Shown here: positions 15,330-39,775 of the stretch, in pieces
How positions within the stretch are numbered: position 1 is the stretch's first letter
How the letters are laid out: each line of letters opens with the position of its first letter
DNA from: Alteromonadaceae bacterium Bs31
Lineage (GTDB): Bacteria; Pseudomonadota; Gammaproteobacteria; Pseudomonadales; Cellvibrionaceae
NCBI GenBank assembly: GCA_900177435.1
Contig: FXAI01000008.1
Span: forward strand, 50,689-114,688
Length of the DNA stretch: 64,000 nt
Direction: 5' to 3'
The notes under the pieces: generated by a model
Databases searched by the model: none
What the model saw: the letters and a program-made list of their open reading frames with translations, nothing else
What the model was told of the DNA's origin: nothing
Program-made: the position numbers and the translations under genes

Positions 15330-15352
15330 TCTTGCTGTTCTATATGCAGCCA

Positions 15353-20257: not shown

Positions 20258-20414
20258 GGCTGCACTCCGCTTGCTGGATAAAATCACCGGGACGCGCAGT
20301 CTCCAGCGAAGATGGTTCAATTAGTGTGATCAGGCGCTAGATTACAGCTCGAATGTGGCGTATTCCAGTATGGAAGATGACAGATTATGGCAGCACCAAG
20401 TGAGAGGGGCGGAT

Positions 20415-21599: not shown

Positions 21600-21724
21600 A
21601 AAAGTTGCGAGTGAGGTATGGTTAAGGCTGTGCTGCTAGCTTTGATGTATTCAATGCCTGCATGGCTATTTATTCTACAGAGCAGAAAGTACACTGAGTG
21701 GAAAGAATAAGAGAGGAAGAGTAG

Positions 21725-23041: not shown

Positions 23042-23221
23042 TTATTTAATGGCCTCTTTTATTTCCTGCATTGCTTTCATCATGTCTTCGTCCAGCTCTG
23101 CGGTATTGATTTTTTTTATAATATTGGAAAGCACGCGTTTCTCGTTGTCGTCCACTACGCCATCGCGTTTTGCAAGTGAAAATAGCTCCCTTAGTTCGCT
23201 TGCATCCAGTTTACCGTCATT
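23042..23221 (-). pseudogene. Possible remnant of a TerB-like (DGxxDxxEL repeat) small protein. The N-terminal part of the called ORF runs into an inverted-repeat element.
   Basis: C-terminal portion reads NDGKLDASELRELFSLAKRDGVVDDNEKRVL..., reminiscent of TerB tandem acidic motifs. There is no plausible ATG or RBS in that region, and the ORF's first 30 codons lie inside the inverted repeat at 23249-23272. Confidence 0.2.
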
Positions 23222-23248
23222 GGCGAAGCAATTGATAGAACGAAAACA

Positions 23249-23523
23249 AAGGAACCTCTGAGTAAGTCCAAAATGTCTCTGCGTGACCTGGAGCGTACAG
23301 GTGCAAGGCAAATTTTGCCGTTAATGGCCTAAAGTCCTTAACAAAAAATTTAACGCCGCAGATGTGCGCTCCAGGCCACGCCCTTCGGGGCTCCACAGGT
23401 TTTCTCTGCTCTGCGTTGAACTTTTTTGACTTAACCCGTTAGGCCTGCAAAAGTTCGTCTTGATCAGAAAAAACCTGTGAAGCCAGAGGCATCTTGGACT
23501 TAATCAGAGGTTCCTTAAGCTCC
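23249..23523. repeat. MITE-like element or long imperfect palindrome of about 270 bp, bounded by 23-bp inverted repeats that extend imperfectly to about 40 bp.
   Basis: aaggaacctctgagtaagtccaa at 23249-23272 and ttggacttaatcagaggttcctt at 23495-23517 are reverse complements with one mismatch. The motif TTAATCAGAGGTTCCyTArGCT also occurs at 5156-5177. Confidence 0.4.
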
Positions 23524-23557
23524 AAGTAGTCTCTGCTTTCTGTCATGTGGCGTTCTC

Positions 23558-24085
23558 CTAGTCAAATTTAGTGTTTATAAAATGTTTAATGTCTGAGCGT
23601 TTGGGGTGCGCATCTACCCATTCTTTAAACGCTTCTACTTTTGAAAAATCGCTCTCTCCAATGATTTTAGAAAAGTGCGCATGCATACTGGACTTTTCTT
23701 TTTGTCGGCGGATATTGCGTTGCCAGGCCTCGGTAAACACCGAAGAGAGTTTCTTATGAAGGTCGAGGGTTTTTACCAGGTCCCACTCACCGGCGTCGAG
23801 CCATACTTCATCGCAGTGAGAGCACAGCTCCAGCCGGTTTTGCGTGTTTACGCCAATACGGTATTTGGTCATCATACCGCTGCATTTAGGGCATTGTTTG
23901 GCACCTGCGGCTTCTTCCGCGAGTTCGGTGTGTATGTCGCTAATTTCGTGGCTGTGCTCAGACCAGAAACGATAGTTCATGAGTGGCAGCAAGGCACCTT
24001 TGCATTTGGGGCAACTTGCAGCTAAAAGCCCATGTTCAAGTTCGCTGGGTTCCAGCTCGGTATTTTTACAGCTACAACATTTCAT
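23558..24085 (-). CDS. Tandem zinc-ribbon protein (two zf-TFIIB-like CxxC...CxxC ribbons plus a C-terminal domain of unknown function).
   Basis: CSCKNT...CPKCKG and CPKCSGMM...CSHCDEVWLDAGEWD, matching the C..C.GvWlD.gEl pattern. Its ATG at 24083-24085 abuts the stop of the upstream PLD-like gene. Confidence 0.6.
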   Translation of the reverse strand: MKCCSCKNTELEPSELEHGLLAASCPKCKGALLPLMNYRFWSEHSHEISDIHTELAEEAAGAKQCPKCSGMMTKYRIGVNTQNRLELCSHCDEVWLDAGEWDLVKTLDLHKKLSSVFTEAWQRNIRRQKEKSSMHAHFSKIIGESDFSKVEAFKEWVDAHPKRSDIKHFINTKFD

Positions 24086-24777
24086 TGTTTGCCTCCGTAT
24101 TTTTCCCAAAGCCCCTCAAAGCAGTTGATAAATTCCCGAACTGCCTTTGGGTGATGAGTGATGAGAATATTTTCCTGGTTTCGTTCACTGGCGCTCCGTG
24201 TCCAGTTAAAGCTCCCGTTAAGTAATATAGCTTTATCGAAAACAGCAAACTTGTGATGCATATGGTTAGTGCTGTTGTCCATTCTTACATCCAAGCCTTG
24301 GCGTATTAATAAGTCGATATCCGAGCCATCATCGTTTGATTTATCGTCATCTGTAATGATGCGTACGTTTATGCCGCGCTTGTGAGCACTGATGAGGGCT
24401 TCGCTGATGCGGTTGTCAGAAATCGTAAACACGCATATATCGATACTGGACTTTGCTTTATGGCAGCTATCCAATATCGCCCTGCGACATTCCTCTCCGG
24501 GGCTGAAGTAGCTTTTAGGTGGCTGTATAGCGGCACTGCCATCCAGTGCCTTAATGCTCCGTTCCAGCCACTGCAGGGCTCGATTCGCTTGTGGGCAGCC
24601 TGTTTCGAATAGGTGATGCCTGAATAAATCGAAGGCACGATTTTTTAAAAATCGTACGTCTTCTTCGTCCAGTGTGGCGGCTAAGTTGCGAAGACTTTGT
24701 TTTTCTTCACCACTCAGGCGGTAGTCTTCAAAGGTTTGTTTTAACGAGTTTTCTAGAGACTGTTTTGATGTGCTCAT
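24082..24777 (-). CDS. Phospholipase-D superfamily protein with a single HKD motif (Nuc-like endonuclease / PLD-like).
   Basis: HKD motif HHKFAVFD...GSFNWT. The N-terminal 90 aa are helical with no signal peptide. A 4-bp ATGA overlap joins it to the upstream rhomboid gene. Confidence 0.75.
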   Translation of the reverse strand: MSTSKQSLENSLKQTFEDYRLSGEEKQSLRNLAATLDEEDVRFLKNRAFDLFRHHLFETGCPQANRALQWLERSIKALDGSAAIQPPKSYFSPGEECRRAILDSCHKAKSSIDICVFTISDNRISEALISAHKRGINVRIITDDDKSNDDGSDIDLLIRQGLDVRMDNSTNHMHHKFAVFDKAILLNGSFNWTRSASERNQENILITHHPKAVREFINCFEGLWEKYGGKQ

Positions 24778-25328
24778 GTTCGCAACTTCTTTCTGGCCAT
24801 TAAGTAGGCACAGAGTACTCCGCTTAGCGCCCCGAATAAATGGGATTCAAAGGATATGCTGGCATCTCCGGGCAGGACGCCGTACACCATACCGCCGTAA
24901 AAAAAAGCCACGAAAACAGCGACGGCAATATTGCCAAAACTTCGCTGAAACCAGGCCATTGCGATAGAAAGGCTCCAAAGGCCGAATATCCAGCCACTGG
25001 CACCTATATGAATAGAAGGGCGCCCGAAAAACCAAACCAGCAGGCCTGTGAGCGTGATGATAAAAAGGCTGCTTTTGACATAGAAGCGAATACCCCGGAG
25101 TAAACACAGGGCGCTGAAGATGCACATGCCAAACAGGTTATTTAGCAAGTGGCCCCAGCTGCCGTGCAGAAACGGAGCGGTAAAAATATATGGCAGGCTG
25201 CGGGCGTCGTGAGGCGTAATGCCATAGTGTAGAAGGCGACCGCTTAATAGTATATTCAGCAGGTGGACGCCCACCATGGCAAGCACCACCCAGCTCAACA
25301 GTTTTACCTTCTCGTCAAAACCTTTCAT
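24774..25328 (-). CDS. Rhomboid family intramembrane serine protease.
   Basis: Six TM helices, GASGWIFG (the GxSG catalytic Ser) and a downstream His in the last helix (HLFGALSG). Confidence 0.75.
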   Translation of the reverse strand: MKGFDEKVKLLSWVVLAMVGVHLLNILLSGRLLHYGITPHDARSLPYIFTAPFLHGSWGHLLNNLFGMCIFSALCLLRGIRFYVKSSLFIITLTGLLVWFFGRPSIHIGASGWIFGLWSLSIAMAWFQRSFGNIAVAVFVAFFYGGMVYGVLPGDASISFESHLFGALSGVLCAYLMARKKLRT

Positions 25329-25339
25329 ATCTGCCTTAA

Positions 25340-28300
25340 CTAAAGCTGTTTGCTTCCTGCCAATTTTTCCAGCGATCGAAGCTGCTCAGATACTTCTGAC
25401 ATTTTATCGTGGGTGCGTAAATCAATTTCCAGCTTTTTGTCCATGCTCCTAACAAGGGGAAATATGCTGTTCTCGATGGTGTCTGCCAGTACTTTGAGTA
25501 ATTGATCTATTCCTGGAACCGGCTGGTTTACCACTTCTACTTTGGGCGCTTCTTTATTGGTATTCGCCAGTGCGAGTGCTTGCAGGCCGTCTGCAAACTT
25601 ACTCAAGGCTGCGCGCAGTAGCTTACGTTCTTTGTCTATGGCTTTAGCTTGTTGCTCGCTGGCCCCGTCTTTTGAGCTATTTTCCGCGCTAGCCGCTAAA
25701 TTGCGAACGCCGCTAACTAGGTCCGCCAGTTGGGCAACTACCTTGCTGCCTGTATCAGTATCATCACCACCCATGGCTTTATTGCGTAGAAAGTCGGCCT
25801 TAATTTGTTGCCAGCGTTGGCTTTGTAGCTCGGTCATATTGCCGCGCAATTCAGCAAGTTTTAGAAGGTTTTCTTCCGCACCTGCTGTGAGCAACTGAGC
25901 TTCGCCCAGGTAGTGGTCTTCAATCAGCTGCATGAGTTCACTCTGGTTCATTACGGCTGATATTTTTTCGCCCATTTTATTCATGTTGCGGTAGCTGCCT
26001 TGTAACTTAAAAGGCGGCTCGTTGCGGTATTTATCTGCCTGTGCGGCAGAAACAATGTATTGCTGATTAATTTTTAGCACCACGTCACGAATTACGTAGA
26101 GCTTTTTAAGCACGTCGACTATTTCGTTAATTTCTGCACCGCTGTATTGGTGGCTTAAATCAGTTGTGGCTACCTCTTTATCGTTAGCCAGATCCATAAG
26201 AAGGTAAACATCTTTAATGTCGCGGGTGGCTAGTGGCGCGAGTACCGGGTTGGAGGTAAGGCTGTTTTCGATATAGCTCATGGCGAACTGCTCGTCCATT
26301 CCGCCGAGGATATCACCCAGGTTATAAATGTCCGCCCTGTTGGCCAACATGTCCGGGATTTTAAATACCTCGCCAGATTCGGTATAGGGGTTACCCGCCA
26401 TGACTACGCAGAACTTTTTGCCTCGCATGTCGTAGGTTTTTGTTTTTCCTTTCCACACGCCTTCAATGCGTCGTGTGCCATCACACAGGGAAATAAACTT
26501 TTGCAGAAACTCGGGGTTGGTATGCTGTATATCATCCAGGTAGAGCATGACGTTATTGCCCATTTCCAGAGATAAATTGAGTTTATGCAGTTCCTGTCGT
26601 GCGGTGGCATTGGGTGCTTGTTCCGGGTCGAGAGATAATACCTCGTGGCCGAGAGAAGGGCAGTTGATCTTCATGAAGATCAAGCCCAAGCGGCTGGCGA
26701 CGTATTCCATCAAGGTGGTTTTACCGTAGCCGGGAGGTGAGATCATCATCAACAGGCCCATGAGGTCCGTTCGCTTATTTTCACCAACGGTTCCCATCTG
26801 CTTGGCGAGGTTGTCCCCAATAATGGGAAGATAGGCTTCGTTGATAAGCCTGTTGCGAACAAAGGAGCTTAAGGGGCGTGCTTTAAATTCTTCAAGCCGT
26901 AAGCTATCTCTTTCGCGATTGACGATGTTTTGTCGAGTTTCCAGATACTCGCGATAGCCGGTAACAAATTCGCTGCGGTGGTGGTTGAGCCTGAGGAAGA
27001 AATCGTCCACGGCGATAGAGAGAACGCGGTTCTCCACCCGCTTATGCTCGCCCATGAGGCCTTCGACACTTAACTCCAGATCGGCCTCTGTCAGCCTTCT
27101 ATCGATGCGCTCATCGGCGTTAATAAGTGCAGCCGCTTCGGGAATGTAGCGTTCGAGATGTTGCAGTTCTTTATCTTTCACCAGCGCGGAAAGCCAGGCG
27201 CAGCTGAGCTTCCAGCGTTCCGCTGGCCAGCCCAGCATTTTTTCCAGGGCCACTTGAAAGCGCCGCCAGCTATCGTCGTCCAGGCTGCGTTTTAGTTCAT
27301 CTGCCAGTTGCCTTGCGTATTTGCTGCCGATAAATTCGGTGCGCTCACGGCCCAACTCCGTAACCAGGTATTCCGCTGCTCGCCGTATTACCAGTGGGCT
27401 TACATTTATGGGGTGAATGCTTATAAACTCTCGCATAGCAGTGTGGACTTCTTCTGCCAGTAGCTCGTGTGCTTCGCCGCTGGTGAAGTGATCGCGCATT
27501 TTTGCTGCAGAAAGGGCACGCTCGGTCCAGGTTTCATAGGTGAGGCGTTTGCTTTTTAGCTGCTCGGATATACGTTGAATATTTGCCCAGAACACCTGCG
27601 CCAGCCCCCGGCTTTTGGGGTCGAAAATCAACAAGTCCGCGGCATCCATTGCGGGTAACAAGCGCTGCAGTATTTTTGCCGCGTCGTGGTCGTGAATGCC
27701 TTTTTCGTAACCCTCTTTGTAGCGAGGGGTGGCGAACTCTCTTACCAGTTTAAGCAGGCTGTTTTCATCCAATAGAGCTTGCGCGAGTACTTGCTGGTTT
27801 AAATTGTCTTCCTGTCGTTCGGCAGCATGAATAATACTGGCGGCGAGATATTCTGCCCGGTAAACGGAATCGCTTTCGGACTCCAGAGTTACCTGCCAAT
27901 AGGGTTGCAGTTCTTTTAGCGCGGGGTCTTCAATGGGTTCAAAGAAATCCGTTCCGGTAAGATGAATGTTCAGGTCGTCACCGCGAGGTAAGATGGTGAG
28001 ATCAAGCTCTTGGGTATTAACGCTGAATTTATGGCGTGGGCCCAGTTTAATAACCGAGCCGCCCCCTTCGTAAATATCTGTTTTATCACGCAGTACACGC
28101 AGCGCCTGTTCTTTTGCTGCTTTAAATTTTGATTCAATATCGTCCGCTTTTACGGCGGAACTGAGTTCACGCAGTTGCTGGATAAATTCACGTATTTTTA
28201 ATACCAGCGCATCGGACGCGAAATAGGTGTTGAGCTTGTCCGCTTCGGTAAACTTGGTGGAGCGTTTTTCTATACTGCTGAGTACTCGATTGGCGGCATC

Positions 28301-30658
28301 GGCAATTGACTGCGCGCGACGTTCCCGATCATCAAGTAAACGTTGCTTATGGGATTCAAAAGTTTCGTAGATCTCCTCCCGCTTGGACATAATATCCGTA
28401 AGAAATTGATCGTACTCACTAAACTGGCTTTCGAGTTCTTCCAGTTGAACTAATAGTCTCGACATCTGCTCGTCGCAGCTCTCTGGCGAATTTGCCATAC
28501 CCAGGGCATTGGTGATGCTTTGGGTAAAGAGCTTAAACTGCGCTGCGAATTCAGCGATAGCTTCCGATGAACCAAGGTTTTTTTGTTTGTGCCGTGCGTC
28601 GGCTTTGCATTGGTTGAGTTTTGCGTACACTTCGGAGATAGCATCTATAATCCGAGTGCGCATTGTGGTGTCTTCAACTTTTAGGGTTGATAGCAGTTCC
28701 GACAGTAAATCCAAACCAGCAGCGGTTTTTTCCACCGTTTCAATAAGCGGGTTAAGCTCTGCAATGGTTGCTACGGTTTCGACGTCTGCATTTATGGTTT
28801 CAATTTTTAGATAGTAAGGCTGTAGCGCGTTCTCATCGGCCAAAAATTCTACCGTTCGTTCACTAAGCTGTTGCTGAGCCTGAGCCAGTTGCTCTTCCAT
28901 TTTACTGATGGCAGCGGTATTAATGTAACGGTAGGATTTTATGGTGGCGAGCTGGCCAGCGTGCTGGCGCAACTCGTCCAATGCCTGCACATAGGCTTCG
29001 GCACTGTCCCAGGATGACGAGCGAATGGTTTCTATCAGTTTTTTGTGTTTTGCTTTTGCGTCGTTTAAGGCTTGGCTGCTTTGTTTGCGTATACTTTCTA
29101 CTTTGGCAAACTCATCGATTGCCAGCTCCGCAGTGGCAGAAACCTCCCGCAGCGTTATTGCGATGGTTTCCAGTCCATCGACCCCTGATTTAGATTCCGC
29201 CACCCAATAGTGATTATCGAAAACTTTTAATGCGGCGTTGGATAGCTCTTCGTAAAGCCGAACGGATACCGATTGATTATCGATAGTGCGGCAAACACTG
29301 AGTAAGTCTGAAATACCGCGTACCAGTGGTGCATTACCAATGCGGCCAAGAAAAGATTGGCTTGCTGGTGCTTTGCTGGCGAATTCGTCACTGATGTAAG
29401 GCGTGTGCCAGATTTGCATGGGGTGAACGCGTGTGGGTTCTTCCTCGGCGGAAAAAATTACCAGCTGGCCTGCGTCTGATAGCGCATAGCCGTGTGCAAA
29501 AATGGGGTTGGCCAGCTTTTTATCAATCATGTTGTAGGCCATCAGGCCCACGATGCCCTCGGCAGGCTCGTAGAAAACATAAAGCACATCTTCACCGTTG
29601 GGTGAGCGAATCATGCGTTTAAAGCGCAAGCCTTCGTGCTCTTCATCGAAAGTTTTGTTTTCTCCGCTTTGCAGGTAATAACCGCCGGGGAAAACAATGC
29701 CATGGTCTTCAGGCAGTTGAACGCAGGAAGCGCCTATGGCGTCTATCCTGTTCACTTCTGCGGTGAGAGTATTAAAAACGAAATAGCGCCATACATCTTC
29801 CCTGTAGGGCAGTATTTTAATAAGAATTAAATCGCCAAGGGCGGCGTAGCAGTATTCAGCATCGTCGATGGATTGCGTTTTATCTTCAACATCTTCGCGA
29901 TAGACTCCCAGGCCATCTTCAGTATTGTTTTCGATTTTAATGGTAAGGTCGCCACCCACGGCTTCTACAAATACCTTGTCTAAAATATTTACATGGGGGT
30001 GCCTGCCGTGAACGGCATCTTCTCGGGTACACTCTGTCCATTCAAAATCATAGGCGGGTGGCAGCTGAATATCTCGTTCACCACGGTTGTCTATATAGTC
30101 TACTTTCTTTCCGTCGGGGGAGACTGCCCAGCGAAAGACTCGGATATCTTCTAGCCGCTCACCAATCTGGAAGCCCATTAACAATTTGCCATTTTTAATG
30201 GTTAGCTCAACCAGCTTGGTATGCTTGTAGTAGCGATAGAGTTCAGTGAAATCCTGAACGAAGCTTCGATTGGCGAGAAAAGAGCTTTCGGTGGCTTGTT
30301 CTTCCAGCTGAAGGTTTTCGTCTTCGCCTTTCAATTTAAACAGGGCGAAAACATCATCCACCAGAGTCTCTTTTTTCAGGCCGATAAAAACGTTGTAGCC
30401 AAAGAGCAGGGTATCACCGACTTGAACGATATCCCGAGCAATACAGTTGTTTTCCGTACGCACGCGAACTCGTGCTGCCACAGCCATTTCTGAGCTGCCG
30501 AATTCACTGAGACGCGCGGCATTTAAATTTCGGGCATGCTGTTCGAGAGTTTCGCCCTGCTCCAGCAAGCGCTTTTTCAATACCTCGTAGGCACCGCCTT
30601 CTGAAACGGCCTTGTCTACCAGGTTTTCTTCATTTTCCTGTTGACGATCTGTCGCCAT
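25340..30658 (-). CDS. Giant 1772-aa protein with an N-terminal globular region, a central region of about 600 aa of coiled-coil, and a C-terminal AAA+ ATPase (MoxR/AAA_5-like) domain followed by a further coiled-coil tail.
   Basis: Walker A SPPGYGKTTL, Walker B VMLYLDDIQ, sensor-1-like VVMAGNPY, and an Arg-finger-like MLANRADIYNLGDI. Long heptad-like stretches (e.g. EEQLAQAQQQLSERTVEFL...). RBS AAGGAAG 4 nt upstream of the ATG at 30658. Confidence 0.7.
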   Translation of the reverse strand: MATDRQQENEENLVDKAVSEGGAYEVLKKRLLEQGETLEQHARNLNAARLSEFGSSEMAVAARVRVRTENNCIARDIVQVGDTLLFGYNVFIGLKKETLVDDVFALFKLKGEDENLQLEEQATESSFLANRSFVQDFTELYRYYKHTKLVELTIKNGKLLMGFQIGERLEDIRVFRWAVSPDGKKVDYIDNRGERDIQLPPAYDFEWTECTREDAVHGRHPHVNILDKVFVEAVGGDLTIKIENNTEDGLGVYREDVEDKTQSIDDAEYCYAALGDLILIKILPYREDVWRYFVFNTLTAEVNRIDAIGASCVQLPEDHGIVFPGGYYLQSGENKTFDEEHEGLRFKRMIRSPNGEDVLYVFYEPAEGIVGLMAYNMIDKKLANPIFAHGYALSDAGQLVIFSAEEEPTRVHPMQIWHTPYISDEFASKAPASQSFLGRIGNAPLVRGISDLLSVCRTIDNQSVSVRLYEELSNAALKVFDNHYWVAESKSGVDGLETIAITLREVSATAELAIDEFAKVESIRKQSSQALNDAKAKHKKLIETIRSSSWDSAEAYVQALDELRQHAGQLATIKSYRYINTAAISKMEEQLAQAQQQLSERTVEFLADENALQPYYLKIETINADVETVATIAELNPLIETVEKTAAGLDLLSELLSTLKVEDTTMRTRIIDAISEVYAKLNQCKADARHKQKNLGSSEAIAEFAAQFKLFTQSITNALGMANSPESCDEQMSRLLVQLEELESQFSEYDQFLTDIMSKREEIYETFESHKQRLLDDRERRAQSIADAANRVLSSIEKRSTKFTEADKLNTYFASDALVLKIREFIQQLRELSSAVKADDIESKFKAAKEQALRVLRDKTDIYEGGGSVIKLGPRHKFSVNTQELDLTILPRGDDLNIHLTGTDFFEPIEDPALKELQPYWQVTLESESDSVYRAEYLAASIIHAAERQEDNLNQQVLAQALLDENSLLKLVREFATPRYKEGYEKGIHDHDAAKILQRLLPAMDAADLLIFDPKSRGLAQVFWANIQRISEQLKSKRLTYETWTERALSAAKMRDHFTSGEAHELLAEEVHTAMREFISIHPINVSPLVIRRAAEYLVTELGRERTEFIGSKYARQLADELKRSLDDDSWRRFQVALEKMLGWPAERWKLSCAWLSALVKDKELQHLERYIPEAAALINADERIDRRLTEADLELSVEGLMGEHKRVENRVLSIAVDDFFLRLNHHRSEFVTGYREYLETRQNIVNRERDSLRLEEFKARPLSSFVRNRLINEAYLPIIGDNLAKQMGTVGENKRTDLMGLLMMISPPGYGKTTLMEYVASRLGLIFMKINCPSLGHEVLSLDPEQAPNATARQELHKLNLSLEMGNNVMLYLDDIQHTNPEFLQKFISLCDGTRRIEGVWKGKTKTYDMRGKKFCVVMAGNPYTESGEVFKIPDMLANRADIYNLGDILGGMDEQFAMSYIENSLTSNPVLAPLATRDIKDVYLLMDLANDKEVATTDLSHQYSGAEINEIVDVLKKLYVIRDVVLKINQQYIVSAAQADKYRNEPPFKLQGSYRNMNKMGEKISAVMNQSELMQLIEDHYLGEAQLLTAGAEENLLKLAELRGNMTELQSQRWQQIKADFLRNKAMGGDDTDTGSKVVAQLADLVSGVRNLAASAENSSKDGASEQQAKAIDKERKLLRAALSKFADGLQALALANTNKEAPKVEVVNQPVPGIDQLLKVLADTIENSIFPLVRSMDKKLEIDLRTHDKMSEVSEQLRSLEKLAGSKQL

Positions 30659-30667
30659 GATTCTTCC

Positions 30668-30889
30668 TTAGCAGTCTGAATGCTCTGCCAGCTCTACATC
30701 AGTTTGTTCGTTGCTTTCCACGGTAAAAAGAGCGCTTGCCAAAAGGCCAGCCAGTAAGCCCGCTCCGGCACCCATTGCGGTACTGCTCAGCACGGAATTA
30801 TTCTTAGTACCGTGTATTGCGCCAAGCCCGGCTCCTATTGCGCTGGCCAGTGGTGTTATCTTTTTTAAAGAAATATCGTTGTCGTCCAT
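30668..30889 (-). CDS. Small glycine-zipper membrane protein (GxxxG/AxxxG repeats), 73 aa.
   Basis: AIGAGLGAIHG and AMGAGAGLLAGLLASA segments. RBS AAGGAAG before the ATG. It ends 10 nt before the giant ATPase gene. Confidence 0.5.
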   Translation of the reverse strand: MDDNDISLKKITPLASAIGAGLGAIHGTKNNSVLSSTAMGAGAGLLAGLLASALFTVESNEQTDVELAEHSDC

Positions 30890-30962
30890 CGTGCTTCCTT
30901 CTGGCTACTCGCCCTCGGTGTTTGTGGCGAGTTAAGAGGTTTTGGATAGCTGTGTCGGTAAC

Positions 30963-30997
30963 AATCAAAAAGCGGTGAAACCAAGGGCTTCACCGCA
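30963..30997 (-). terminator. Rho-independent terminator after the flotillin gene (read on the minus strand).
   Basis: Minus-strand sense GCGGTGAA-gcccttggt-TTCACCGC followed by TTTTTG. It separates the yqiJK-like transcript from the downstream five-gene unit. Confidence 0.55.
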
Positions 30998-31004
30998 AAG
31001 GACA

Positions 31005-32996
31005 TTACTCGGGTTTTACATCTGTTGTGGTGCTGGCCGCCTGGGCGCCTGCAGAGTAGGCCATCACTTTCTCCAAGAGGGTAGAGATGGTTGCGCTCTT
31101 GCCTGCTAGACCGTCTACCGCTTTGCCAATGGACAGAGATTTGGCAAAGTTATCAAAGAAGTGCGCTTCGCCGCCCACGATATCAATATGTGCTTTCTGC
31201 AGCGCGGTTGCCAGAACCTCGGCATTTTCTTTGGCGATTTCTTTGCCGGCTTCAATGGCTGCGATGGCTTCGTTAAAGGCGGTTTCCAGAGTCATGCGGA
31301 ATTCTTCGTGGTCACGAGCCTTATCGCTCATATTGCCCATGGCTTCGAATTTGTCTACAAGACCGTCTGCTTCGGCTTTGAATTGCTCGCGAGTAACCTC
31401 AGCTTTTGCTACGCCGGTTTCGCGTACGGCTTTGGCTTCGGCCTCACCTTTAAAGCCAATAACATTAGCCTCTGCAGTACCTTCTTTCTCCAGGGCCACA
31501 GCTTTTGCTTCTTGCGCTTTCGCTTCTGCTTCACCTTTGGAGGCAATTACACGAGCTTCTGCAACACCTTCCTTCTCCAGTGCGTCGGCTTTGGCTTCCT
31601 GAACCTTGGCCTCAGCAAGGCCGGAGGCGGCTTCTTCTGCCTGAACGCCTTCAGCCATTTTCTTCTTGGCGTCGGCCTCTTTAGCGGCGGCTTCAAGCTC
31701 TGCTTGTGCGAGAACTGTTATTTCCACCGATTTGTGTTTGGCAGCGAGCTCTTTTGCTTCCGCCTCTTTTACAGTTTGAACTTTTTCTTCTTCGGCTTTG
31801 GCTTCTGCTTCCAGAATTTTTACTTGCTTAATACGGTCTGCCTCGGAAACTTCACGAACTTCTTTGATTTTCTCTTCTTCAATGGCAACGGTTTTATCCA
31901 CCACTACACGTTCGCGGATAACGTTGGCAATTTCCTTTTTCTCCACTTCGATGGCTTTTTCTGCTTCAATACGCTGTAGCTCCACCTCTCTTTCGCGGGA
32001 GACGATTTCCAGGTCTTTCGCCCGGGTAACCTTTTCCACCTCAATGACTACTGCACGTTGACGGTTTTGCTCCGCAACCTCAATTTCACGCTGCTGATTT
32101 TCCTCTTGAACTTTTAGGTCCTGATCCACAAGTAAGGTCGCCATATCGGCTTTCTTGCGTTCTTCTTCCTGAATGCGTTTTGTTTCAGCTTCTTCTCGCG
32201 CTTGAATACTCAGGATCTCCCGCTGCTGACGAGCCTCGGCATCGGACTGCTGGCGCTCCAGCTCCAACATGGCTTCAACGGTTTCCACATTTTTCTTTTT
32301 AATGGCCAGCTCTTCGTCGCGCTCGAACACGTTGGTTTGAACGTTTTGTGTGGCAGTAAGCTCGGTGATTTTGCGAATACCTTCGGCGTCGAGGATGTTG
32401 GCTGGGTCGAGAGAGGATTTAGGTGTTTGTTCCAGGTAGTCGATGGCCACGTCTTCCAACGCGTAGCCATTAAGATCATTTCCGATGACCTCAACAATTT
32501 TATCGCGGAACTCTTGCCTGTCTTCAAAAAGCTTAACGAAGTCCAATTGCTTGCCAACTGTTTTTAAGGCTTCTGAAAATTTTGCGTTAAACAATTCATT
32601 GACTGCGTGTTTATCGGACGCTCGATCGGCGCCAAGTGACTTGGCAACCTTTAAGACGTCTTCCGGTGTTTCATTAACGCGCAGATAAAAGGCGACGGTA
32701 ATATCTGCTCGCATATTATCGGCACATATCAGCCCCTCTTTCCCTCGTCGGTCCACTTCAAGGGTGATTAATGATATGCGCATTAATTCCTTTTTGTGTA
32801 TAACCGGCAATATCCATGAGCCAGTAAAAAATACTTTGGGTTTAGTGCTTAGGTCATTTTTAATTAAAGCAACGCCTTGTTCTACCTTTACATAGAAAGC
32901 TTTAAATAGCGCCATTATGCCGAGGATGAATAGGAATAGTACGCCAACGACAATAACTATCATCGTAAATAAAGGCAGATGATCTGGCATAGGCAT
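31005..32996 (-). CDS. yqiK: Flotillin-family protein (SPFH/band-7 domain plus a long Glu/Ala/Lys-rich coiled coil), YqiK-like.
   Basis: N-terminal TM segment, SPFH core (GVALIKND...ITLEVDRRGKEGLICADNMRADITVAFYLRV) and a flotillin-type EA-repeat region with internal ~25-aa tandem repeats. Confidence 0.85.
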   Translation of the reverse strand: MPMPDHLPLFTMIVIVVGVLFLFILGIMALFKAFYVKVEQGVALIKNDLSTKPKVFFTGSWILPVIHKKELMRISLITLEVDRRGKEGLICADNMRADITVAFYLRVNETPEDVLKVAKSLGADRASDKHAVNELFNAKFSEALKTVGKQLDFVKLFEDRQEFRDKIVEVIGNDLNGYALEDVAIDYLEQTPKSSLDPANILDAEGIRKITELTATQNVQTNVFERDEELAIKKKNVETVEAMLELERQQSDAEARQQREILSIQAREEAETKRIQEEERKKADMATLLVDQDLKVQEENQQREIEVAEQNRQRAVVIEVEKVTRAKDLEIVSREREVELQRIEAEKAIEVEKKEIANVIRERVVVDKTVAIEEEKIKEVREVSEADRIKQVKILEAEAKAEEEKVQTVKEAEAKELAAKHKSVEITVLAQAELEAAAKEADAKKKMAEGVQAEEAASGLAEAKVQEAKADALEKEGVAEARVIASKGEAEAKAQEAKAVALEKEGTAEANVIGFKGEAEAKAVRETGVAKAEVTREQFKAEADGLVDKFEAMGNMSDKARDHEEFRMTLETAFNEAIAAIEAGKEIAKENAEVLATALQKAHIDIVGGEAHFFDNFAKSLSIGKAVDGLAGKSATISTLLEKVMAYSAGAQAASTTTDVKPE

Positions 32997-33029
32997 GGTG
33001 AATCTCCTTGTTGATTAATTTAGATTGTG

Positions 33030-33713
33030 TTATTCGCCTTTAAAGTCGCTTTCAGAAACAACTTTATAAAGATTTTCTTCGGCGATGTATTCGAGCAGTA
33101 CAACTCTATCGCCTCGTTTAAATTGTTCTTCTTTGTAAGGCCTGACTTTTACAAGAAGGCCTGCTCCGCCGTCTTCGACGGTGGCTTCGCCAAACTTTTT
33201 GTCAACTCGTCCGGTTCGAACTATGGCTACCTGGCCAACTATGGTTTTCTCCACTTCTTGATTGGCGGCTTGGAAAATGGGGCGTAGTGGTCTGATTACT
33301 GTGGCAGTTATCATCGCTGATACGTAGGCTGTGCCGATAAATACAGGAATAGCTACTAAGAATTTGAGCAGTGCACCAGGTACAAAGGGAAACAGGAAAT
33401 AGACGATTAGAAAGCTGATTACCCAGCCAAGCAGTGCGATTAGAGTAAGTACTATGGTGAGCGGCACCGCGTTGAGACCAAGCTTGAGTAGAAGCCCGGA
33501 CATCACGTTAAGATTACTCATATCATCAAAATTATTGATATCAATATCTTCCGGAATGTCGAAGTCAAGAATGTCGATTTCAACCATACCTAGTACCGCC
33601 AGTGCCCAGTACAGTATGCAGAAAATTAGAAGAACCGTGAAAACAACAGTAGGAAAAGAGGAGCAAATCTCATAGAACGGGTCCATCTTTTCACTGAAAA
33701 ATATTGCAAACAT
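33030..33713 (-). CDS. yqiJ: NfeD-like inner membrane protein (YqiJ-like partner of flotillin) with a C-terminal OB-fold region.
   Basis: Multiple TM helices, then VGQVAIVRTGRVDKKFGEATVEDGGAGLLVKVR. It sits immediately upstream of the flotillin gene, as in yqiJK. Confidence 0.7.
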   Translation of the reverse strand: MFAIFFSEKMDPFYEICSSFPTVVFTVLLIFCILYWALAVLGMVEIDILDFDIPEDIDINNFDDMSNLNVMSGLLLKLGLNAVPLTIVLTLIALLGWVISFLIVYFLFPFVPGALLKFLVAIPVFIGTAYVSAMITATVIRPLRPIFQAANQEVEKTIVGQVAIVRTGRVDKKFGEATVEDGGAGLLVKVRPYKEEQFKRGDRVVLLEYIAEENLYKVVSESDFKGE

Positions 33714-33730
33714 TGGTTCCTCCTATACGG

Positions 33731-34084
33731 TTATTGTTCTTTTATATCGTTCACAGGCGGCGTAGACAGGGCATCCACTATGAGCGCAGTGGCTATCACC
33801 GCGAATATAATACTGCCGGGATAAATGCGTTCAAAGGCGATAGCTGCGGAAGTAAACCAGAGTAAACAGCTAATTGGAATGATGGCGCTCAATATAATGA
33901 TGTCTTCACCCCAAATTTCTGCCAAGCTGCCGCTTATATAGAACACCAAGCCGAGTAAAATTAGCCAGGGTTCGGCGAATAGTGCGCCGAGTACCAGTGC
34001 CGCGATAAGTCCAAGAGAGCGATGCTCAATATATTTCGCTCCATAACCGTCCAATGGGGGGAGTTTAAATCCATAGTGTTTCAT
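33731..34084 (-). CDS. Small integral membrane protein, possibly YjfL/DUF350-like.
   Basis: 117 aa with four hydrophobic helices, positioned after a YjfJ-like PspA gene. The family assignment is by context only. Confidence 0.4.
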   Translation of the reverse strand: MKHYGFKLPPLDGYGAKYIEHRSLGLIAALVLGALFAEPWLILLGLVFYISGSLAEIWGEDIIILSAIIPISCLLWFTSAAIAFERIYPGSIIFAVIATALIVDALSTPPVNDIKEQ

Positions 34085-34197
34085 TCTGCTTCTCCTTTTG
34101 CTTTCTCCTGGAAATTTTTAAATGTGCCATCCGTGGCGTGTTACAGGCCTCCTGCCGTAAATCCCTTTGTTACTTCTCCTTTTCGCCTCCGTGCGAC

Positions 34198-34890
34198 CTA
34201 ATTGCTACTTTTTTTCTTTAATCGTTCCAGTACGTCTGCTGCGCCAGTAGCGGAGGGCGATATACCCGCTTTTTCAAGCTTTTCTTGCAGAGAGTCTTGC
34301 TGGCTTTCCTCTGCAAGTTCGTTGGCTGCTTTCATTTGCGCTGCTTTCAGTGCCTGTTTTTCCTTTATGCGCTCCAGTGAATCCATGGCGGTGCGCAGTT
34401 TGGAATTGGAGCCGCTGTGCCGTTCTGCTACAGCAGATTGAGCGCGCTGTACGCTTTCTGTGGCTTTAACGGTATCTATTTGCTGCTTTAATCGTTTGAT
34501 GTTTTGCTCTGCTGCTTTTATCGCGCGCCTTAAATCGTCGGCACTGCTGGCAAAACCCGTTGCAGCTTCTCCCTCTGTGCGATACTGGTTTTCGAGCGTC
34601 GCTATTTTTTCCGCCACTTCCAGAGCGAGCGCTTGATCATCCTTCTCCAGGGCCTGTACGGCATAGCCTTCATATTCTGTGATGTTCGTTTTTAATTGCG
34701 CGCATTTTTCTTCGGCGAGCTTTTGTCTGGCAATGATGGCCGTTAACCCGTCTCTGGATTGTCTCAGCTCTTCCGTAGCGTCTCGCACTTCCTGATCCAG
34801 TATGCGCAAGGCTTGGCTGTCTAGCACGGCTTCACCCGCTTCGTGGACACCGCCTCGTAAAGCGGTAATCATTTTCGCCCAGATATTCAT
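34198..34890 (-). CDS. PspA/IM30 (Vipp1/ESCRT-III-like) family protein, YjfJ-like.
   Basis: 230-aa all-helical protein. MNIWAKMITALRGG...LRILDQEVRDATEELRQ... matches the YjfJ/PspA N-terminal pattern and length. Confidence 0.8.
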   Translation of the reverse strand: MNIWAKMITALRGGVHEAGEAVLDSQALRILDQEVRDATEELRQSRDGLTAIIARQKLAEEKCAQLKTNITEYEGYAVQALEKDDQALALEVAEKIATLENQYRTEGEAATGFASSADDLRRAIKAAEQNIKRLKQQIDTVKATESVQRAQSAVAERHSGSNSKLRTAMDSLERIKEKQALKAAQMKAANELAEESQQDSLQEKLEKAGISPSATGAADVLERLKKKSSN

Positions 34891-34901
34891 TACATTCTCC
34901 T

Positions 34902-35540
34902 CTATGCCCTGGCATCCAGGGGGGTGGTTAATAAGTTGCTGTACGCTTCCGTTGCGTGGATAACGTTTGCAGCCAAGGTTTCGATTTCGAACAAGATGTT
35001 GGGTATTACAGAGGTGGCGCTCAGTGCACCGAACATCATGTAATAGCTCTTGCCGTCGCTTAGGGTGTCGAGGCTGATGGTGGAGAGCGGGAAGTACTTG
35101 TGAGTACGTAATACCGCGTCATTAAATTTGTTGGGGTCTTCCACATCCCCTGTTGGCCAGAGCACTGCTTCTACTACGATTTGCTCCCCGGCAGCTGTGA
35201 GGAAGAGTGGCAAATCGCCATACTCGCGCATGATGATGTGCAGTGTTGGCTCAACGCCATCAATCAGCTCAATATCGGCGTTGCCACTGGTGAACAGCTC
35301 TTCTTTTTTTAGCTCTTCACAAAGGCTTTCGCTTGACCAGCGCGGCAGGTTGATAGTTGTCATAGGCTTGTCTCCTGTATCCATGATCGGTTTTGGATTG
35401 ATATACCTTAGCTGCTTTTCTATGTTCGCAAGCAACTTGGCGTTCTCCGGGAGTATCCAGACTTCCTTTTTTACCAGGCCCATATCCCGCAGGCGCTGGC
35501 GATACTCTCGTTGGTAATGTGCAGATGACTTTGCTTTCAT
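34902..35540 (-). CDS. Conserved hypothetical protein that is first in the cluster (YjfI-like by position). Its N-terminus is basic and looks like a DNA-binding segment.
   Basis: MKAKSSAHYQREYRQRLRDMGLVKK resembles short basic DNA-binding leaders of small regulators. It is followed by an acidic domain of about 170 aa. The family is uncertain. Confidence 0.4.
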   Translation of the reverse strand: MKAKSSAHYQREYRQRLRDMGLVKKEVWILPENAKLLANIEKQLRYINPKPIMDTGDKPMTTINLPRWSSESLCEELKKEELFTSGNADIELIDGVEPTLHIIMREYGDLPLFLTAAGEQIVVEAVLWPTGDVEDPNKFNDAVLRTHKYFPLSTISLDTLSDGKSYYMMFGALSATSVIPNILFEIETLAANVIHATEAYSNLLTTPLDARA

Positions 35541-35558
35541 GGGTCCTACTCTATTTCA

Positions 35559-35613
35559 TTACATGTGAGATGTAAATAGCTTACATGTAATATATTTTGT
35601 TATTACATGTAAT
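35559..35613. promoter_or_regulatory. Three TTACATGTAA-type palindromic operator-like sites in the divergent promoter region.
   Basis: TTACATgtgagATGTAA at 35559-35575; TTACATGTAA at 35581-35590 and again at 35604-35613, spaced about 22 bp apart, in an AT-rich 145-bp intergenic region between divergent genes. Confidence 0.45.
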
Positions 35614-35826
35614 TTTTTTATAGCGATATTTCGCCTACTTTAAATTTCACACTATTCCACAGCGCTTGTTTGTGAATGGCCGGGGTTGCGCAATGTGCGA
35701 GGGTCACAAAGCCTGCGCTTGCTCGCGGGGGCGTTTTGTTCTGGGATGTCTGTCACTTCATTGCTTCCTTCAATGGCGCATTGTTTGGCTAAAGAAAAGG
35801 GCGTGCTCAGTGGGGTAGCACAGTAT

Positions 35827-39465: not shown

Positions 39466-39775
39466 GTGTGTTGGGCCTTGTTATTTTATAGTTTATCTGG
39501 AGCTAAATGCGGCGATTATGCAGCTAATTTAATCAATCTTGCCCCCTTGATGCTAGTGGTAAAGGGGATTAATGTGAGCTTGTTGTAGCTTTTTAGCTTC
39601 AAGCGTCGGCAATATTTACAGTCGCTGTAATCTTGTGCTGGACCTCCTGCTTGTATCGCAGCTGCAAATAAGCCCATGCTGTTTAGAGTGTAGAATATAC
39701 CGCAGCGAAAAAACCAAGTGTTACTGCGGTCTTTCTACAATTCATTCTTACTTATGCTACTACCTCGTACCTCGC

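Follow-up and report, generated by a model that had tools for sequence, protein, structure and literature searches.

In Pseudomonas aeruginosa, the operon bacABCDEF (PA3732-PA3727, or PA14_16140-16200) encodes, in this order, a DUF2170 protein (BacA), a PspA-like protein (BacB), a short NfeD protein (BacC), an SPFH/flotillin protein (BacD), a giant ATPase and a phospholipase D (PLD) family protein, the last two of which would correspond to BacE and BacF on the basis of locus-tag order. The genes bacA to bacF are co-transcribed, as revealed by RT-PCR spanning the bacD-bacE junction, and BacB to BacF are increased 6- to 13-fold in a bacA mutant (PMC10948618). Osmotic shock induces PA3731 (PMC2587700), and phage infection raises PA3728-PA3732 together (PMC12041424). 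PA14_16160 has been described as a short NfeD protein and PA14_16180 as an SPFH protein, and a paFlo3 mutant of P. aeruginosa manifested mild phenotypes only (PMC13086221). Ravi et al. (2024) defined an operon class consisting of CesT/Tir-PspA, TM-Band-7-flotillin, a beta-propeller AAA+ ATPase and YqiJ/YuaF, with or without an HKD phospholipase D, and found abbreviated flotillin-YqiJ(-ATPase) operons to be more widespread (PMC11237479), in agreement with our locus counts.

The window analysed here, a stretch of 64,000 nt, carries a cluster with the same gene order as the bac operon and with all components of the published class in the same association. The linkage of these genes is thus already published, and the idea put forward in the initial annotation is not new; our comparison adds the route by which the first gene probably turns the cluster off. 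The host of the cluster is a Cellvibrionaceae-like marine gammaproteobacterium.

Gene content of the cluster

Ten minus-strand open reading frames (g1 to g10 in gene order) occupy positions 23558-35540, exactly as initially annotated. The intergenic gaps measure, in gene order, 11, 113, 17, 33, 115, 9 and 11 nt and are followed by two 4-nt ATGA overlaps, one between g8 and g9 and, if g10 starts at ATG 24085, another between g9 and g10. The GC content of the cluster is similar to that of its surroundings. The family assignments of the initial annotation held for nine of the ten genes and failed for g3, and its placement of the cluster end at 23558 was not borne out, given that an eleventh conserved gene, encoding a TerB-like protein, starts at 23546. 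All genes described below lie on the minus strand.

The first gene, g1 (34902-35540), encodes a BacA-type DUF2170 protein of 212 amino acids (Pfam DUF2170, E = 1.7e-48) that scored 313.9 bits against the NCBIfam BacA equivalog, for which the cut-off is 300. It consists of a basic N-terminal domain of approximately 45 residues, a variable linker and a CesT/Tir-like domain, and its match to PDB entry 8q8o is limited to residues 68-204. The N-terminal domain is highly conserved in the alignment of BacA proteins. MazE-like was the top Pfam family for this domain in 14 of 22 members, with weak matches that stayed under the gathering score (best E = 0.002), and the AlphaFold2 model of g1 showed moderate confidence in this region (pLDDT of about 50-70). 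The sub-threshold Pfam similarity suggests that the N-terminal domain of BacA may bind DNA. The adjacent gene, g2 (34198-34890), encodes a YjfJ/BacB-like member of the PspA/IM30 family within the ESCRT-III superfamily (230 amino acids; Pfam PspA_IM30, E = 2e-46), with 36% identity to Escherichia coli YjfJ (E = 1.7e-36).

A lineage-specific small membrane protein of 117 amino acids is encoded by g3 (33731-34084). Its initial labelling as YjfL-like (DUF350) was rejected: Pfam gave no match at E ≤ 10, and neither BLAST nor phmmer aligned the protein with YjfL. A search of 80 loci for g3 homologues found none; g3 of the close relative L083 shares 75% amino acid identity, with 48 synonymous and 29 non-synonymous codon differences. 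The next two genes, both missed by Pfam, encode the counterparts of BacC and BacD/PaFlo3. The product of g4 (33030-33713; 227 amino acids) is a short NfeD/YqiJ-like protein that aligned with E. coli YqiJ in hhalign (probability of 94%, E = 1.5e-7), and its translation, read by eye, contains three hydrophobic segments that we take to be transmembrane helices, together with a C-terminal soluble domain. That of g5 (31005-32996; 663 amino acids) is a YqiK-like flotillin/SPFH protein with 28% identity to E. coli YqiK over 483 residues in BLASTP (E = 1e-44), a hydrophobic N-terminal segment likewise taken by eye to be a transmembrane helix, and a long coiled coil. Just 3′ of the flotillin stop codon, at 30972-30996 on the same strand, lies a strong terminator-like hairpin with an 11-bp stem (seven GC pairs) followed by TTTTT, noted initially as the terminator between the flotillin and glycine-zipper genes. 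A comparable hairpin follows the flotillin gene in only 17 of 77 loci, and the structure probably terminates transcription in part or attenuates it.

The counterpart of PA3728, g7 (25340-30658), encodes a giant ATPase of 1772 amino acids (Pfam DUF3686, E = 1e-207; DUF7902; AAA_5/AAA) belonging to a family of at least 6479 clusters. An N-terminal helix is followed by a beta-propeller (residues about 59-418), by helical bundles that resemble spectrin repeats in the model (about 424-700), and by a MoxR/AAA_5-like AAA+ module (about 1290-1480) with approximately 90% conservation, and the protein ends in a C-terminal tail. The AlphaFold2 model of residues 1-700 had a pLDDT of 84.9, and fold searches with it returned generic propellers and helical bundles only. 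Sequence and profile searches of the PDB for a relative of g7 found none.

A small glycine-zipper membrane protein of 73 amino acids is encoded by g6 (30668-30889; weak Gly-zipper_YMGG match, E = 0.005), a lineage-specific gene carried among the relatives only by loci L013 and L083. The product of g8 (24774-25328; 184 amino acids; Pfam Rhomboid, E = 5e-18) is a rhomboid intramembrane serine protease whose residues H55, H60, N64, GxS111G and H163 are invariant in 28 of 28 orthologues. That of g9 (24082-24777; 231 amino acids; Pfam PLDc_2, E = 6e-32), probably corresponding to BacF/PA3727, is a single-HKD PLD-family hydrolase whose HxK...D and GSxN motifs are invariant in 25-26 of 26 orthologues, and no signal peptide or transmembrane segment was apparent by eye in its translation. 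The predicted catalytic motifs of both enzymes are intact. The initial designation of the PLD protein as a nuclease was not supported, and that label is unproven. A double zinc-ribbon protein (175 amino acids from ATG 24085; two stretches matching Pfam Zn_ribbon_TFIIB) with conserved cysteines and a conserved W-D-GE motif is encoded by g10 (23558-24085); the zinc-ribbon gene of locus L076 occupies a different position, still within the cluster. The eleventh gene (23042-23546; coding segments 23517-23546 and 23042-23248; approximately 78 amino acids) was detected by tblastn with a family designated f8 (E = 7e-24), and its product weakly matches TerB/DUF533. It is split by a MITE-like insertion of 268 bp with 33-nt terminal inverted repeats (23249-23516). 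L083 has no such insertion at the orthologous site, and its copy of the gene is intact (80 amino acids).

Promoter and operators

Sequence reading and a promoter scan identified a promoter/operator region upstream of g1 (35541-35612, minus strand). It contains three palindromic operators in 22-bp phase, TTACATGTAA at 35603-35612 and 35581-35590 and TCACATGTAA at 35559-35568, and the core 8-mer occurs once more in the whole 64 kb. The –35 element is TTTACA (35571-35576), and the –10 element, TAGAGT (35548-35553), ends 7 nt upstream of the start ATG (35540). The same layout is retained in L083, a relative with 89% identity. The repeated palindromes had been noted initially, and they are real and conserved: in about 40 genomes, pairs of YACATGTR sites flank the –35 element of a σ70-type promoter with a –10 element ending 6-7 nt upstream of the start codon. 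The paired sites are spaced 21-26 bp apart, near –48 and –26 relative to the ATG. Within the 130 nt that precede bacA homologues, YACATGTR reaches a density of 13.9 per kb, compared with 0.01 per kb over the remaining 1.8 Mb. The pattern TTGnnn-(16-18)-TAnnnT ending 6-7 nt before the ATG was found at 32 of 41 loci; given this position of the –10 element, the mRNA is predicted to be leaderless. A search of the promoter region of g1 for a sigma54-like match found none.

The operators occur only with BacA forms that bear the conserved basic N-terminal domain, and they are absent upstream of the short DUF2170 genes that lack it, namely E. coli yjfI, a second DUF2170 gene of L083, and that of L077. 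These sequence features suggest that BacA is a two-domain autorepressor translated from a leaderless mRNA, although a regulator other than BacA could bind the palindromes.

Conservation and alternative explanations

We compared the cluster with loci from 80 genomes that encode the giant DUF3686/AAA+ ATPase; these loci, the best-matching ones at 51% identity or more, are mostly from Gammaproteobacteria and phylogenetically non-independent, and the denominators below are testable loci. A flotillin-like gene (48-81% identity) lies directly upstream of the ATPase gene in 70 of 70 loci, an NfeD/YqiJ-like gene upstream in 67 of 70, and a DUF2170-PspA pair in 51 of 69. Downstream are genes for rhomboid (28/73), PLD (32/73) and zinc-ribbon (15/73) proteins, and the TerB-like family occurs within the cluster in 22 of 67 loci. 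The invariant core is thus NfeD, flotillin and ATPase, with the DUF2170-PspA pair and the rhomboid, PLD and zinc-ribbon genes as facultative additions. Accessory genes shift position yet remain within the cluster, other loci contain further membrane-themed accessories (MscS-like channels and TelA), all eleven genes are intact in L083, the closest relative, and the neighbouring gene families recur across Pseudomonas species. Comparative genomics, suggested initially as a check, therefore indicates that the juxtaposition is conserved, functional and non-coincidental, and the cluster is a real, widespread bacterial arrangement uniting membrane-repair proteins with a giant ATPase. We estimate a probability of approximately 0.7 that the region functions as a single conserved unit, orthologous to the envelope-stress operon bac (PA3732-PA3727) of P. 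aeruginosa and carrying additional lineage-specific genes. This explanation rests on homology, gene order, the invariant core, operator and promoter geometry, and intact catalytic motifs.

It is unlikely that the cluster comprises two syntenic but independently regulated units, with g1-g5 forming a stress-inducible PspA/flotillin operon that ends at the hairpin and g6-g10 having a distinct role. The strength of the hairpin at 30972-30996 and the non-coding gap of 65-240 nt that is usual between the flotillin and ATPase genes of relatives would fit such an arrangement, whereas the rarity of the hairpin among loci, the flotillin-ATPase adjacency in all 70, and the P. aeruginosa data, in which RT-PCR crosses bacD-bacE and downstream and upstream proteins rise together in the bacA mutant (PMC10948618), argue against it. 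Downstream of the hairpin, the scan found no convincing promoter; the sole consensus match is inside g6, and such sites are no commoner than in shuffled sequence. The initial split between PspA/flotillin genes and ATPase/protease/PLD genes is unnatural, given that the conserved core spans both halves. A DNA-repair function for the giant protein, with the PLD protein as its nuclease partner and the membrane genes adjacent by chance, is highly improbable. It derives from the Pfam description of DUF3686 as "ATPase involved in DNA repair" and from the NCBI name "DNA repair ATPase" for homologues, but the literature searched yielded no mention of DUF3686, Pfam detected no DNA-binding or nuclease-associated domain in the ATPase, and in the 80 loci its gene is always linked to membrane proteins and never found among repair genes, the recurrent accessories being membrane or stress proteins (MscS-like channels, TelA, TerB-like protein and rhomboid).

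The initial annotation had proposed a membrane-stress or envelope-defence island, but neither the term island nor a role in defence was supported. In an anti-phage or abortive-infection system, infection would be sensed by the ATPase, with the PLD nuclease and the rhomboid as effectors, and PspA and flotillin would shield the host membrane. Large ATPase-plus-nuclease pairs are common among defence systems, and the PLD protein weakly matches the DrmC, DpdK, MkoC and NucT models, but these matches fall far below equivalog cut-offs (68 versus 211 bits), and no PADLOC model matches the ATPase or the other genes beyond generic PLD or coiled-coil similarity. The PLD gene is present in only 32 of 73 loci, whereas flotillin and NfeD are near-constant; the ATPase is 51-89% identical across orders and the flanking families recur in Pseudomonas, a pattern that differs from the patchiness and rapid evolution of defence genes; the GC content is not unusual; and a search for relatives on viral contigs found none. 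The increase in PA3728-PA3732 in phage-infected P. aeruginosa (PMC12041424) is in keeping with defence, but Psp-type genes are classically phage-induced via membrane stress. A defence function is, on balance, quite unlikely.

Proposed mechanism

For a bac-like envelope-stress operon, we propose that BacA acts as a dimeric autorepressor whose MazE-like basic N-terminal domain would bind two or three YACATGTR palindromes, so placed that the bound sites would bracket the –35 element and fill the spacer of the σ70 promoter of the putatively leaderless mRNA. Its CesT-like domain may respond to the state of a partner protein, most probably the neighbouring PspA, with recruitment of PspA to damaged membrane lifting repression in a partner switch that would follow the logic of PspA-PspF. 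The ESCRT-III-like PspA would seal or remodel the damaged inner membrane, and the flotillin/NfeD pair may build a membrane-embedded SPFH scaffold or cage. The giant soluble ATPase might act directly on this assembly, in its assembly, remodelling or client extraction, on the model of FtsH within HflK/C or of Vps4 on ESCRT-III; physical contact between the ATPase and flotillin is suggested by gene linkage. The rhomboid, PLD, double zinc-ribbon and TerB-like proteins would be facultative accessories that process membrane proteins or lipids or serve as adaptors, and the hairpin after the flotillin gene may lower expression of the enzymatic genes relative to that of the structural genes.

Comparison with known systems

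The Pseudomonas paraeruginosa locus (L031) shares 43-67% identity with the cluster, and the P. aeruginosa bac operon has the same operator pair upstream of bacA. Relative to that operon, the window adds g3 and the glycine-zipper, rhomboid, double zinc-ribbon and (disrupted) TerB-like genes. Published work on P. aeruginosa was done with a 16-kDa BacA and put forward a sigma54 promoter, whereas our comparison points to a protein of about 206-212 amino acids and a σ70, leaderless promoter. The description of the operon class (PMC11237479) makes no mention of the rhomboid, the TerB-like protein, a putative N-terminal DNA-binding domain of the DUF2170 protein, or the operator.

The E. coli pairs yqiJK and yjfIJ are homologous to g4/g5 and g1/g2, respectively, but they are unlinked, and a DUF3686 ATPase is missing from E. 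coli. There is no operator upstream of yjfI, whose product is a short form without the N-terminal domain, and yjfIJ runs into the polyamine-related genes yjfKLMC, which are absent from the cluster. In Bacillus subtilis, pspA-ydjGHI (samGHI) combines PspA with an SPFH protein that ties it to the membrane (PMC8581546), and YdjG, the double zinc-ribbon member of this system (PMC11237479), parallels g10. The B. subtilis system has other regulators, no giant ATPase and no NfeD, and its components are analogous, not orthologous.

HflK/C-FtsH and the mitochondrial SLP2-PARL-YME1L complex also combine an SPFH scaffold with an AAA+ ATPase, together with a rhomboid protease in the mitochondrial case. 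The likeness is one of parts only, given that g7 is MoxR-like rather than FtsH-like, with no detectable protease domain or transmembrane segment. The classical Psp system (PspF/sigma54-pspABCDE) likewise places a PspA-family effector under negative feedback and is induced by envelope stress and phage. The cluster lacks PspF, PspB, PspC and a sigma54 promoter, and its regulation apparently operates through a repressor rather than through activator sequestration.

Gene content of the cluster

ORF calling in the window showed that positions 23558–35540 are filled by ten minus-strand ORFs (g1 to g10), which are separated by gaps of 11, 113, 17, 33, 115, 9, and 11 nt, the last two junctions being 4-nt ATGA overlaps. 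The product of g1 contains a DUF2170 domain (Pfam) and matched the NCBIfam equivalog NF050185, "biofilm formation regulator BacA," over its full length (residues 1–205) with a score of 313.9 bits (cut-off, 300); residues 68–204 were covered by PDB entry 8q8o (E = 2e-43). The g2 product is a PspA/IM30 protein (PF04012, E = 2e-46) with 54% identity by tblastn to its homologue in the Pseudomonas paraeruginosa locus L031, and g1 and g2 matched YjfI and YjfJ of Escherichia coli with identities of 35% and 36%, respectively. No family was assigned by Pfam to g4 or g5; a profile of g4 orthologues aligned with YqiJ (hhalign, 94%, E = 1.5e-7), and g5 showed 28% identity to E. coli YqiK over 483 amino acids (BLASTP, E = 1e-44). 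The remaining genes encode a glycine-zipper protein (g6, a weak match), a giant ATPase of 1772 amino acids with DUF3686, DUF7902, and an AAA_5/AAA module (g7), a rhomboid (g8), a single-HKD PLD (g9), and a protein with two TFIIB-type zinc ribbons (g10). The g7 product is 100% identical to protein P0001, in keeping with Alteromonadaceae bacterium Bs31 as the source of the window. An Rfam scan of 22.5–36.5 kb yielded only chance-level matches, located on a hairpin inside the MITE-like insertion described below.

The third gene had been labeled YjfL-like in the initial annotation. This label is wrong, given that g3 has no DUF350 match in Pfam and no similarity to E. coli YjfL. Neither g3 nor g6 has a homologue by tblastn in the 80 loci analyzed below, except for a similar glycine-zipper ORF in one of them (L013). 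Both are carried by the closest relative, L083, whose ATPase is 89% identical to that of the window. The g3 sequences of the window and L083 differ by 48 synonymous versus 29 non-synonymous codons, and the substitution pattern is typical of real genes. Identity of g6 with BacE of P. aeruginosa was ruled out, the glycine-zipper gene being confined to the closest relatives; its position is occupied by a TerB-like gene in many Pseudomonas species and by nothing in L031.

Toward lower coordinates, there is another envelope-protection gene pair a few kilobases from the cluster, in which an alpha-2-macroglobulin gene (1655 aa, with all MG/TED domains) is directly followed by a gene for a PBP1C-type penicillin-binding protein (783 aa; both within 13002–20320, minus strand). 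A 394-aa ORF without a Pfam family (20415–21599, minus strand) separates the macroglobulin gene from the cluster. On the other side, a DUF6055 gene (774 aa; 35686–38010, plus strand) separates the cluster from a response-regulator gene (38080–39465), whose 461-aa product has a receiver domain and no recognizable output domain and is 74% identical to its orthologue in L083. In L083, nothing separates the regulator gene from bacA, which it precedes in the same orientation, and the DUF6055 gene therefore seems to reflect an insertion or loss at this site. Genes for a divergent PilS-like histidine kinase with six TM segments and a short regulator (39635–41561) adjoin the response-regulator gene.

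Conservation of the linkage

One genome per species was scanned, and 80 loci encoding an ATPase relative with 51–70% identity were collected; these loci are the best matches and are related to one another, coming mostly from Gammaproteobacteria together with some Lampropedia, one zetaproteobacterium, and Longimicrobium. The ten window proteins were used as tblastn queries against this set. All counts come from tblastn, since a crude longest-ORF caller yielded antisense shadow ORFs where loci were GC-rich. A flotillin-like gene was found directly upstream of the ATPase gene on the same strand in 70 of 70 testable loci, and an NfeD-like gene upstream in 67 of 70; the DUF2170 and PspA pair was upstream in 51 of 69. 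Downstream of the ATPase gene, rhomboid, PLD, and double zinc-ribbon genes were present in 28, 32, and 15 of 73 testable loci, respectively. In most of the remaining loci, the ATPase gene is separated from the NfeD and flotillin genes by an insertion. On the basis of these counts, the natural core of the cluster is NfeD–flotillin–ATPase, with the PspA pair and the enzymes being frequent yet optional additions. The cluster had been described as a PspA/flotillin half joined to an ATPase/rhomboid/PLD half; the adjacency is conserved, but the division does not hold, since the core straddles both halves.

The optional genes change place but stay within the cluster. In one locus (L076), the flotillin and ATPase genes have the zinc-ribbon gene between them, and in two others (L046 and L069), the rhomboid gene lies upstream of NfeD. 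Such mobility inside the cluster argues for function rather than inertia.

Operator and promoter upstream of bacA

The palindromes described 5' of g1 were confirmed, with three being present, and their conservation extends well past L083, the close relative. The 130-nt stretches upstream of 51 bacA homologues contain 92 copies of the 8-mer YACATGTR (13.9 per kb), compared with 18 copies in the other 1.8 Mb of the loci (0.01 per kb), and all pairs spaced by 15–30 nt in the 80 loci are just upstream of a bacA homologue. The spacing within pairs is 21–26 bp, at fixed positions of approximately –48 and –26 relative to the ATG. A TTGA(C/T) motif sits between the two palindromes and TAnnnT follows the proximal one, with a spacing of 16–18 nt, and in 32 of 41 loci the end of the –10 element is 6 or 7 nt away from the ATG. 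The window promoter is TTTACA-17-TAGAGT, 7 nt, ATG. A Shine-Dalgarno sequence is usually absent before these ATGs, all of which open a long bacA ORF downstream of the conserved promoter. The simplest reading of these sequences would be a sigma70 promoter that gives rise to a leaderless bacA mRNA, with operators positioned to block RNA polymerase. A sigma54 promoter upstream of g1 was rejected, with no match to TGGCAC-N5-TTGC being found at 35541–35760 with up to 2 mismatches.

BacA as a candidate autorepressor

BacA homologues consist of an N-terminal domain, a variable linker, and a CesT-like domain. Structure 8q8o corresponds only to the CesT-like part of g1. The N-terminal domain is basic, highly conserved, and approximately 45 amino acids long (KSSAHYQREYRxRLREQGLVKKEVWILPENA..L...EK.LR). 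The MazE-like family PF11455 was its top Pfam match in 14 of 22 members, with a best E value of 0.002 and all scores below the 22-bit cut-off, and its profile yielded no match in PDB. A monomer AlphaFold2 model showed a helix, a low-confidence segment, and a second helix (pLDDT of 47–72), as might be expected if folding of the domain required dimerization.

The operator and the N-terminal domain co-occur: The operator is absent where the DUF2170 gene is short and lacks this domain, as for E. coli yjfI, the second DUF2170 gene of L083, and the homologue in locus L077. Given this co-occurrence and the published de-repression in a bacA mutant, in which BacB to BacF were increased 6- to 13-fold (PMC10948618), we infer that BacA, the product of the first gene of the cluster, is probably an autorepressor that binds YACATGTR sites as its defined operator. 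The chaperone-like domain might serve as the signal input, with the adjacent PspA as the obvious candidate partner. Co-transcription and negative control by BacA have been shown only for PA14 (PMC10948618); in the window, they are predicted from the tight spacing, the two 4-nt overlaps, and the conserved operator, alongside a hairpin after g5.

PA3732 has been treated as a 16-kDa protein (PMC2587700), and the RpoN site proposed "upstream of PA3732" therefore probably falls within the true coding region. Our results suggest that a truncated BacA and the wrong promoter have been used in existing work on P. aeruginosa.

The giant ATPase and the accessory enzymes

The ATPase family evolves slowly and is large, with no fewer than 6479 clusters at 90% identity; conservation of the AAA+ block is approximately 90% in a set of sequences from Xanthomonadales and Longimicrobium, among others. 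The family is found in pathogens, P. aeruginosa, Stenotrophomonas, and Xanthomonas among them. The AAA+ module (AAA_5/AAA at residues 1303–1430) is of the MoxR/AAA_5 type according to Pfam. The AlphaFold2 model contains a helix (residues 23–53), a beta-rich domain (59–418), and helical bundles (424–700), and the Foldseek matches of the model were beta-propellers. No mention of DUF3686 was found in the literature searched. The database name "DNA repair ATPase," for which this analysis found no support, is probably misleading. Given that the ATPase is invariably linked to flotillin and NfeD and only facultatively to PspA, its action may be placed on the SPFH assembly. The ATPases of Longimicrobium (Gemmatimonadota; locus L063, proteins P0241–P0258) share 66–77% identity with those of Lysobacteraceae and other Xanthomonadales, which suggests that the cluster has been transferred horizontally from one phylum to another.

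In the rhomboid, S111 (GxSG), H163 (TM6), and H55, H60, and N64 (the H..H...N motif of TM2) are invariant in 28 of 28 orthologues. In the PLD (g9, 24082–24777, minus strand), H174, K176, and D181 (HxK(x)4D) as well as G188-S-F-N191 (GSxN) are invariant in 25 to 26 of 26 orthologues. No signal peptide or TM segment was seen in the PLD, and its similarity to NucT and DrmC is far below their cut-offs. With its Nuc-like single-HKD motifs, it is a predicted HKD hydrolase, whose substrate might be either nucleic acid or phospholipid. In other loci, the rhomboid and PLD genes downstream of the ATPase gene are replaced by those for MscS-like mechanosensitive channels, for TelA, or for a PHA_gran_rgn small protein (L017, 15710–16873; L023, 15763–16599; L066, 16035–17132; L040, 7144–7422). 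These proteins fit a membrane-stress theme better than they do defense or repair.

An interrupted eleventh gene

A recurrent family of approximately 79-aa proteins (consensus MxExRDYLEMTFRSIxCFAxDGKLD...) with weak TerB/DUF533 matches was found within the cluster in 22 of 67 loci. In the window, the corresponding TerB-like gene starts at an ATG at 23546 on the minus strand, 12 nt past the g10 stop codon, and begins with MTESRDYLEL. It is interrupted by 268 bp (23249–23516), beyond which the same reading frame picks up again (CFRSINCFANDGKLD...) and continues as far as 23042, so that the cluster reaches this position. The gene is intact at the same place in L083, where the orthologous site lacks the element. 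The 268-bp element has 33-nt terminal inverted repeats that are 91% complementary and internal hairpins, and its insertion is precise relative to L083; it is present in one copy within the 64-kb window, and its target-site duplication is ambiguous. As judged from these sequences, the last gene of the cluster is inactivated in the window by a MITE-like element. On visual inspection, the extension at the N-terminus of the PLD (residues 1–95, ...DYRLSGEEKQSLRNLAATLDEEDVRFLKNRAFDL...) is like the DGxL-x-x-E-helix repeats of the TerB-like protein, a likeness that hints at a shared adaptor module.

Alternative explanations and a proposed function

The arrangement described in the initial annotation is real, with corrections to the identity of g3, the eleventh gene, and the location of the core. 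Coincidental adjacency of its parts is excluded by the neighborhood comparison, with the flotillin gene directly upstream of the ATPase gene in every testable locus and NfeD in nearly all. The two parts could be regulated independently at most in a weak sense, through attenuation at a hairpin. The terminator proposed after the flotillin gene does correspond to a real hairpin (30972–30996), but such a hairpin is present in only 17 of 77 loci and a conserved terminator is therefore not a feature of the family.

The cluster had also been proposed to be an envelope-defense island, and this is unlikely. PADLOC 2.0 returned no match for the ATPase, which is the signature protein, or for the rhomboid, flotillin, NfeD, and zinc-ribbon proteins; its PLD matches were to the generic PLD domain only, and its PspA matches were coiled-coil noise. 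GC content is ordinary, and the same flanking gene families recur across Pseudomonas species. No ATPase relatives were found on viral contigs, a result that also ruled out a phage origin. The idea of a coordinated membrane-stress unit is supported by the comparison, though it was already in the literature.

A more novel reading, to which we would give roughly one chance in four, is that the cluster encodes an SPFH hub analogous to the mitochondrial SLP2-PARL-YME1L assembly together with BacA as a previously unrecognized kind of regulator. A flotillin/NfeD cage would dock a propeller-and-helical-rod AAA+ remodeler, a rhomboid protease, and a cardiolipin-type PLD. BacA would join, in one protein, a MazE-like DNA-binding domain and a type-III-chaperone-like sensor domain, and would repress the leaderless sigma70 promoter until the ESCRT-III-like PspA is called to a damaged membrane. 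If this hub reading is true, both the 16-kDa annotation of BacA and the sigma54 model for P. aeruginosa would need to be revised. Concrete handles are provided by the invariable partnership of the ATPase with flotillin and NfeD, not PspA, and by an accessory set that also takes in rhomboid, double zinc-ribbon, and TerB-like proteins; with these and a candidate autorepressor with a defined operator, the system is directly testable.

Comparison with known systems

The arrangement has already been published, and linkage of the cluster as such is not new. Macé et al. (2008) named PA3729–PA3732 the "bac" cluster and likened PA3731 to PspA (PMC2587700). In the work of Wallart et al. (2024), RT-PCR placed the six genes PA14_16140–16200 in one operon, and the structure of CesT-like BacA was solved (PMC10948618). 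A 2026 study described PA14_16160 as a short NfeD and PA14_16180 as an SPFH protein (PMC13086221), PA3728 has been given as an "ATPase" (PMC8190622), and PA3728–PA3732 were induced in phage-infected cells (PMC12041424). The papers cited here on the bac operon and its class make no mention of the rhomboid, of the TerB-like gene, or of DNA binding by the DUF2170 protein.

The window differs from the classical Psp regulon in that its cluster is without PspB, PspC, and PspF domains and without a sigma54 match. In operons of the E. coli yjfIJKLMC type, DUF2170 and PspA genes are followed by those for YjfL (DUF350), DUF2491, DUF1190, and ATP-grasp proteins, which the window lacks; tblastn with YjfK, YjfL, and YjfM yielded no match in the window. 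Immediately after its bac-type cluster, L083 carries a second, different DUF2170-PspA operon of the yjfIJ type (17819–21693), with K+ channel, DUF2491, DUF350, and DUF1190 genes and a 129-aa DUF2170 protein without the YACATGTR operator; the window has no counterpart of this operon.

The P. aeruginosa-type bac operon, in contrast, recurs in the window in the order BacA-type DUF2170, PspA/IM30, short NfeD, and SPFH/flotillin, with the ATPase gene immediately downstream of the flotillin gene and then PLD. P. paraeruginosa L031 aligns with the window gene for gene, with identities of 43% for NfeD, 67% for flotillin, 59% for the ATPase, and 47% for PLD. Ravi et al. (2024) defined an operon class comprising CesT/Tir-PspA, TM-Band-7-flotillin, a coiled coil/beta-propeller AAA+ ATPase, YqiJ/YuaF, and sometimes an HKD phospholipase D, and found PspA-less flotillin-YqiJ(-ATPase) operons to be more widespread (PMC11237479). 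[quoted passage not shown] The window cluster joins this known operon class, and what is added here beyond the literature is the conserved operator, the predicted leaderless promoter, a BacA N-terminal domain that had been overlooked, and a broader set of accessory genes.
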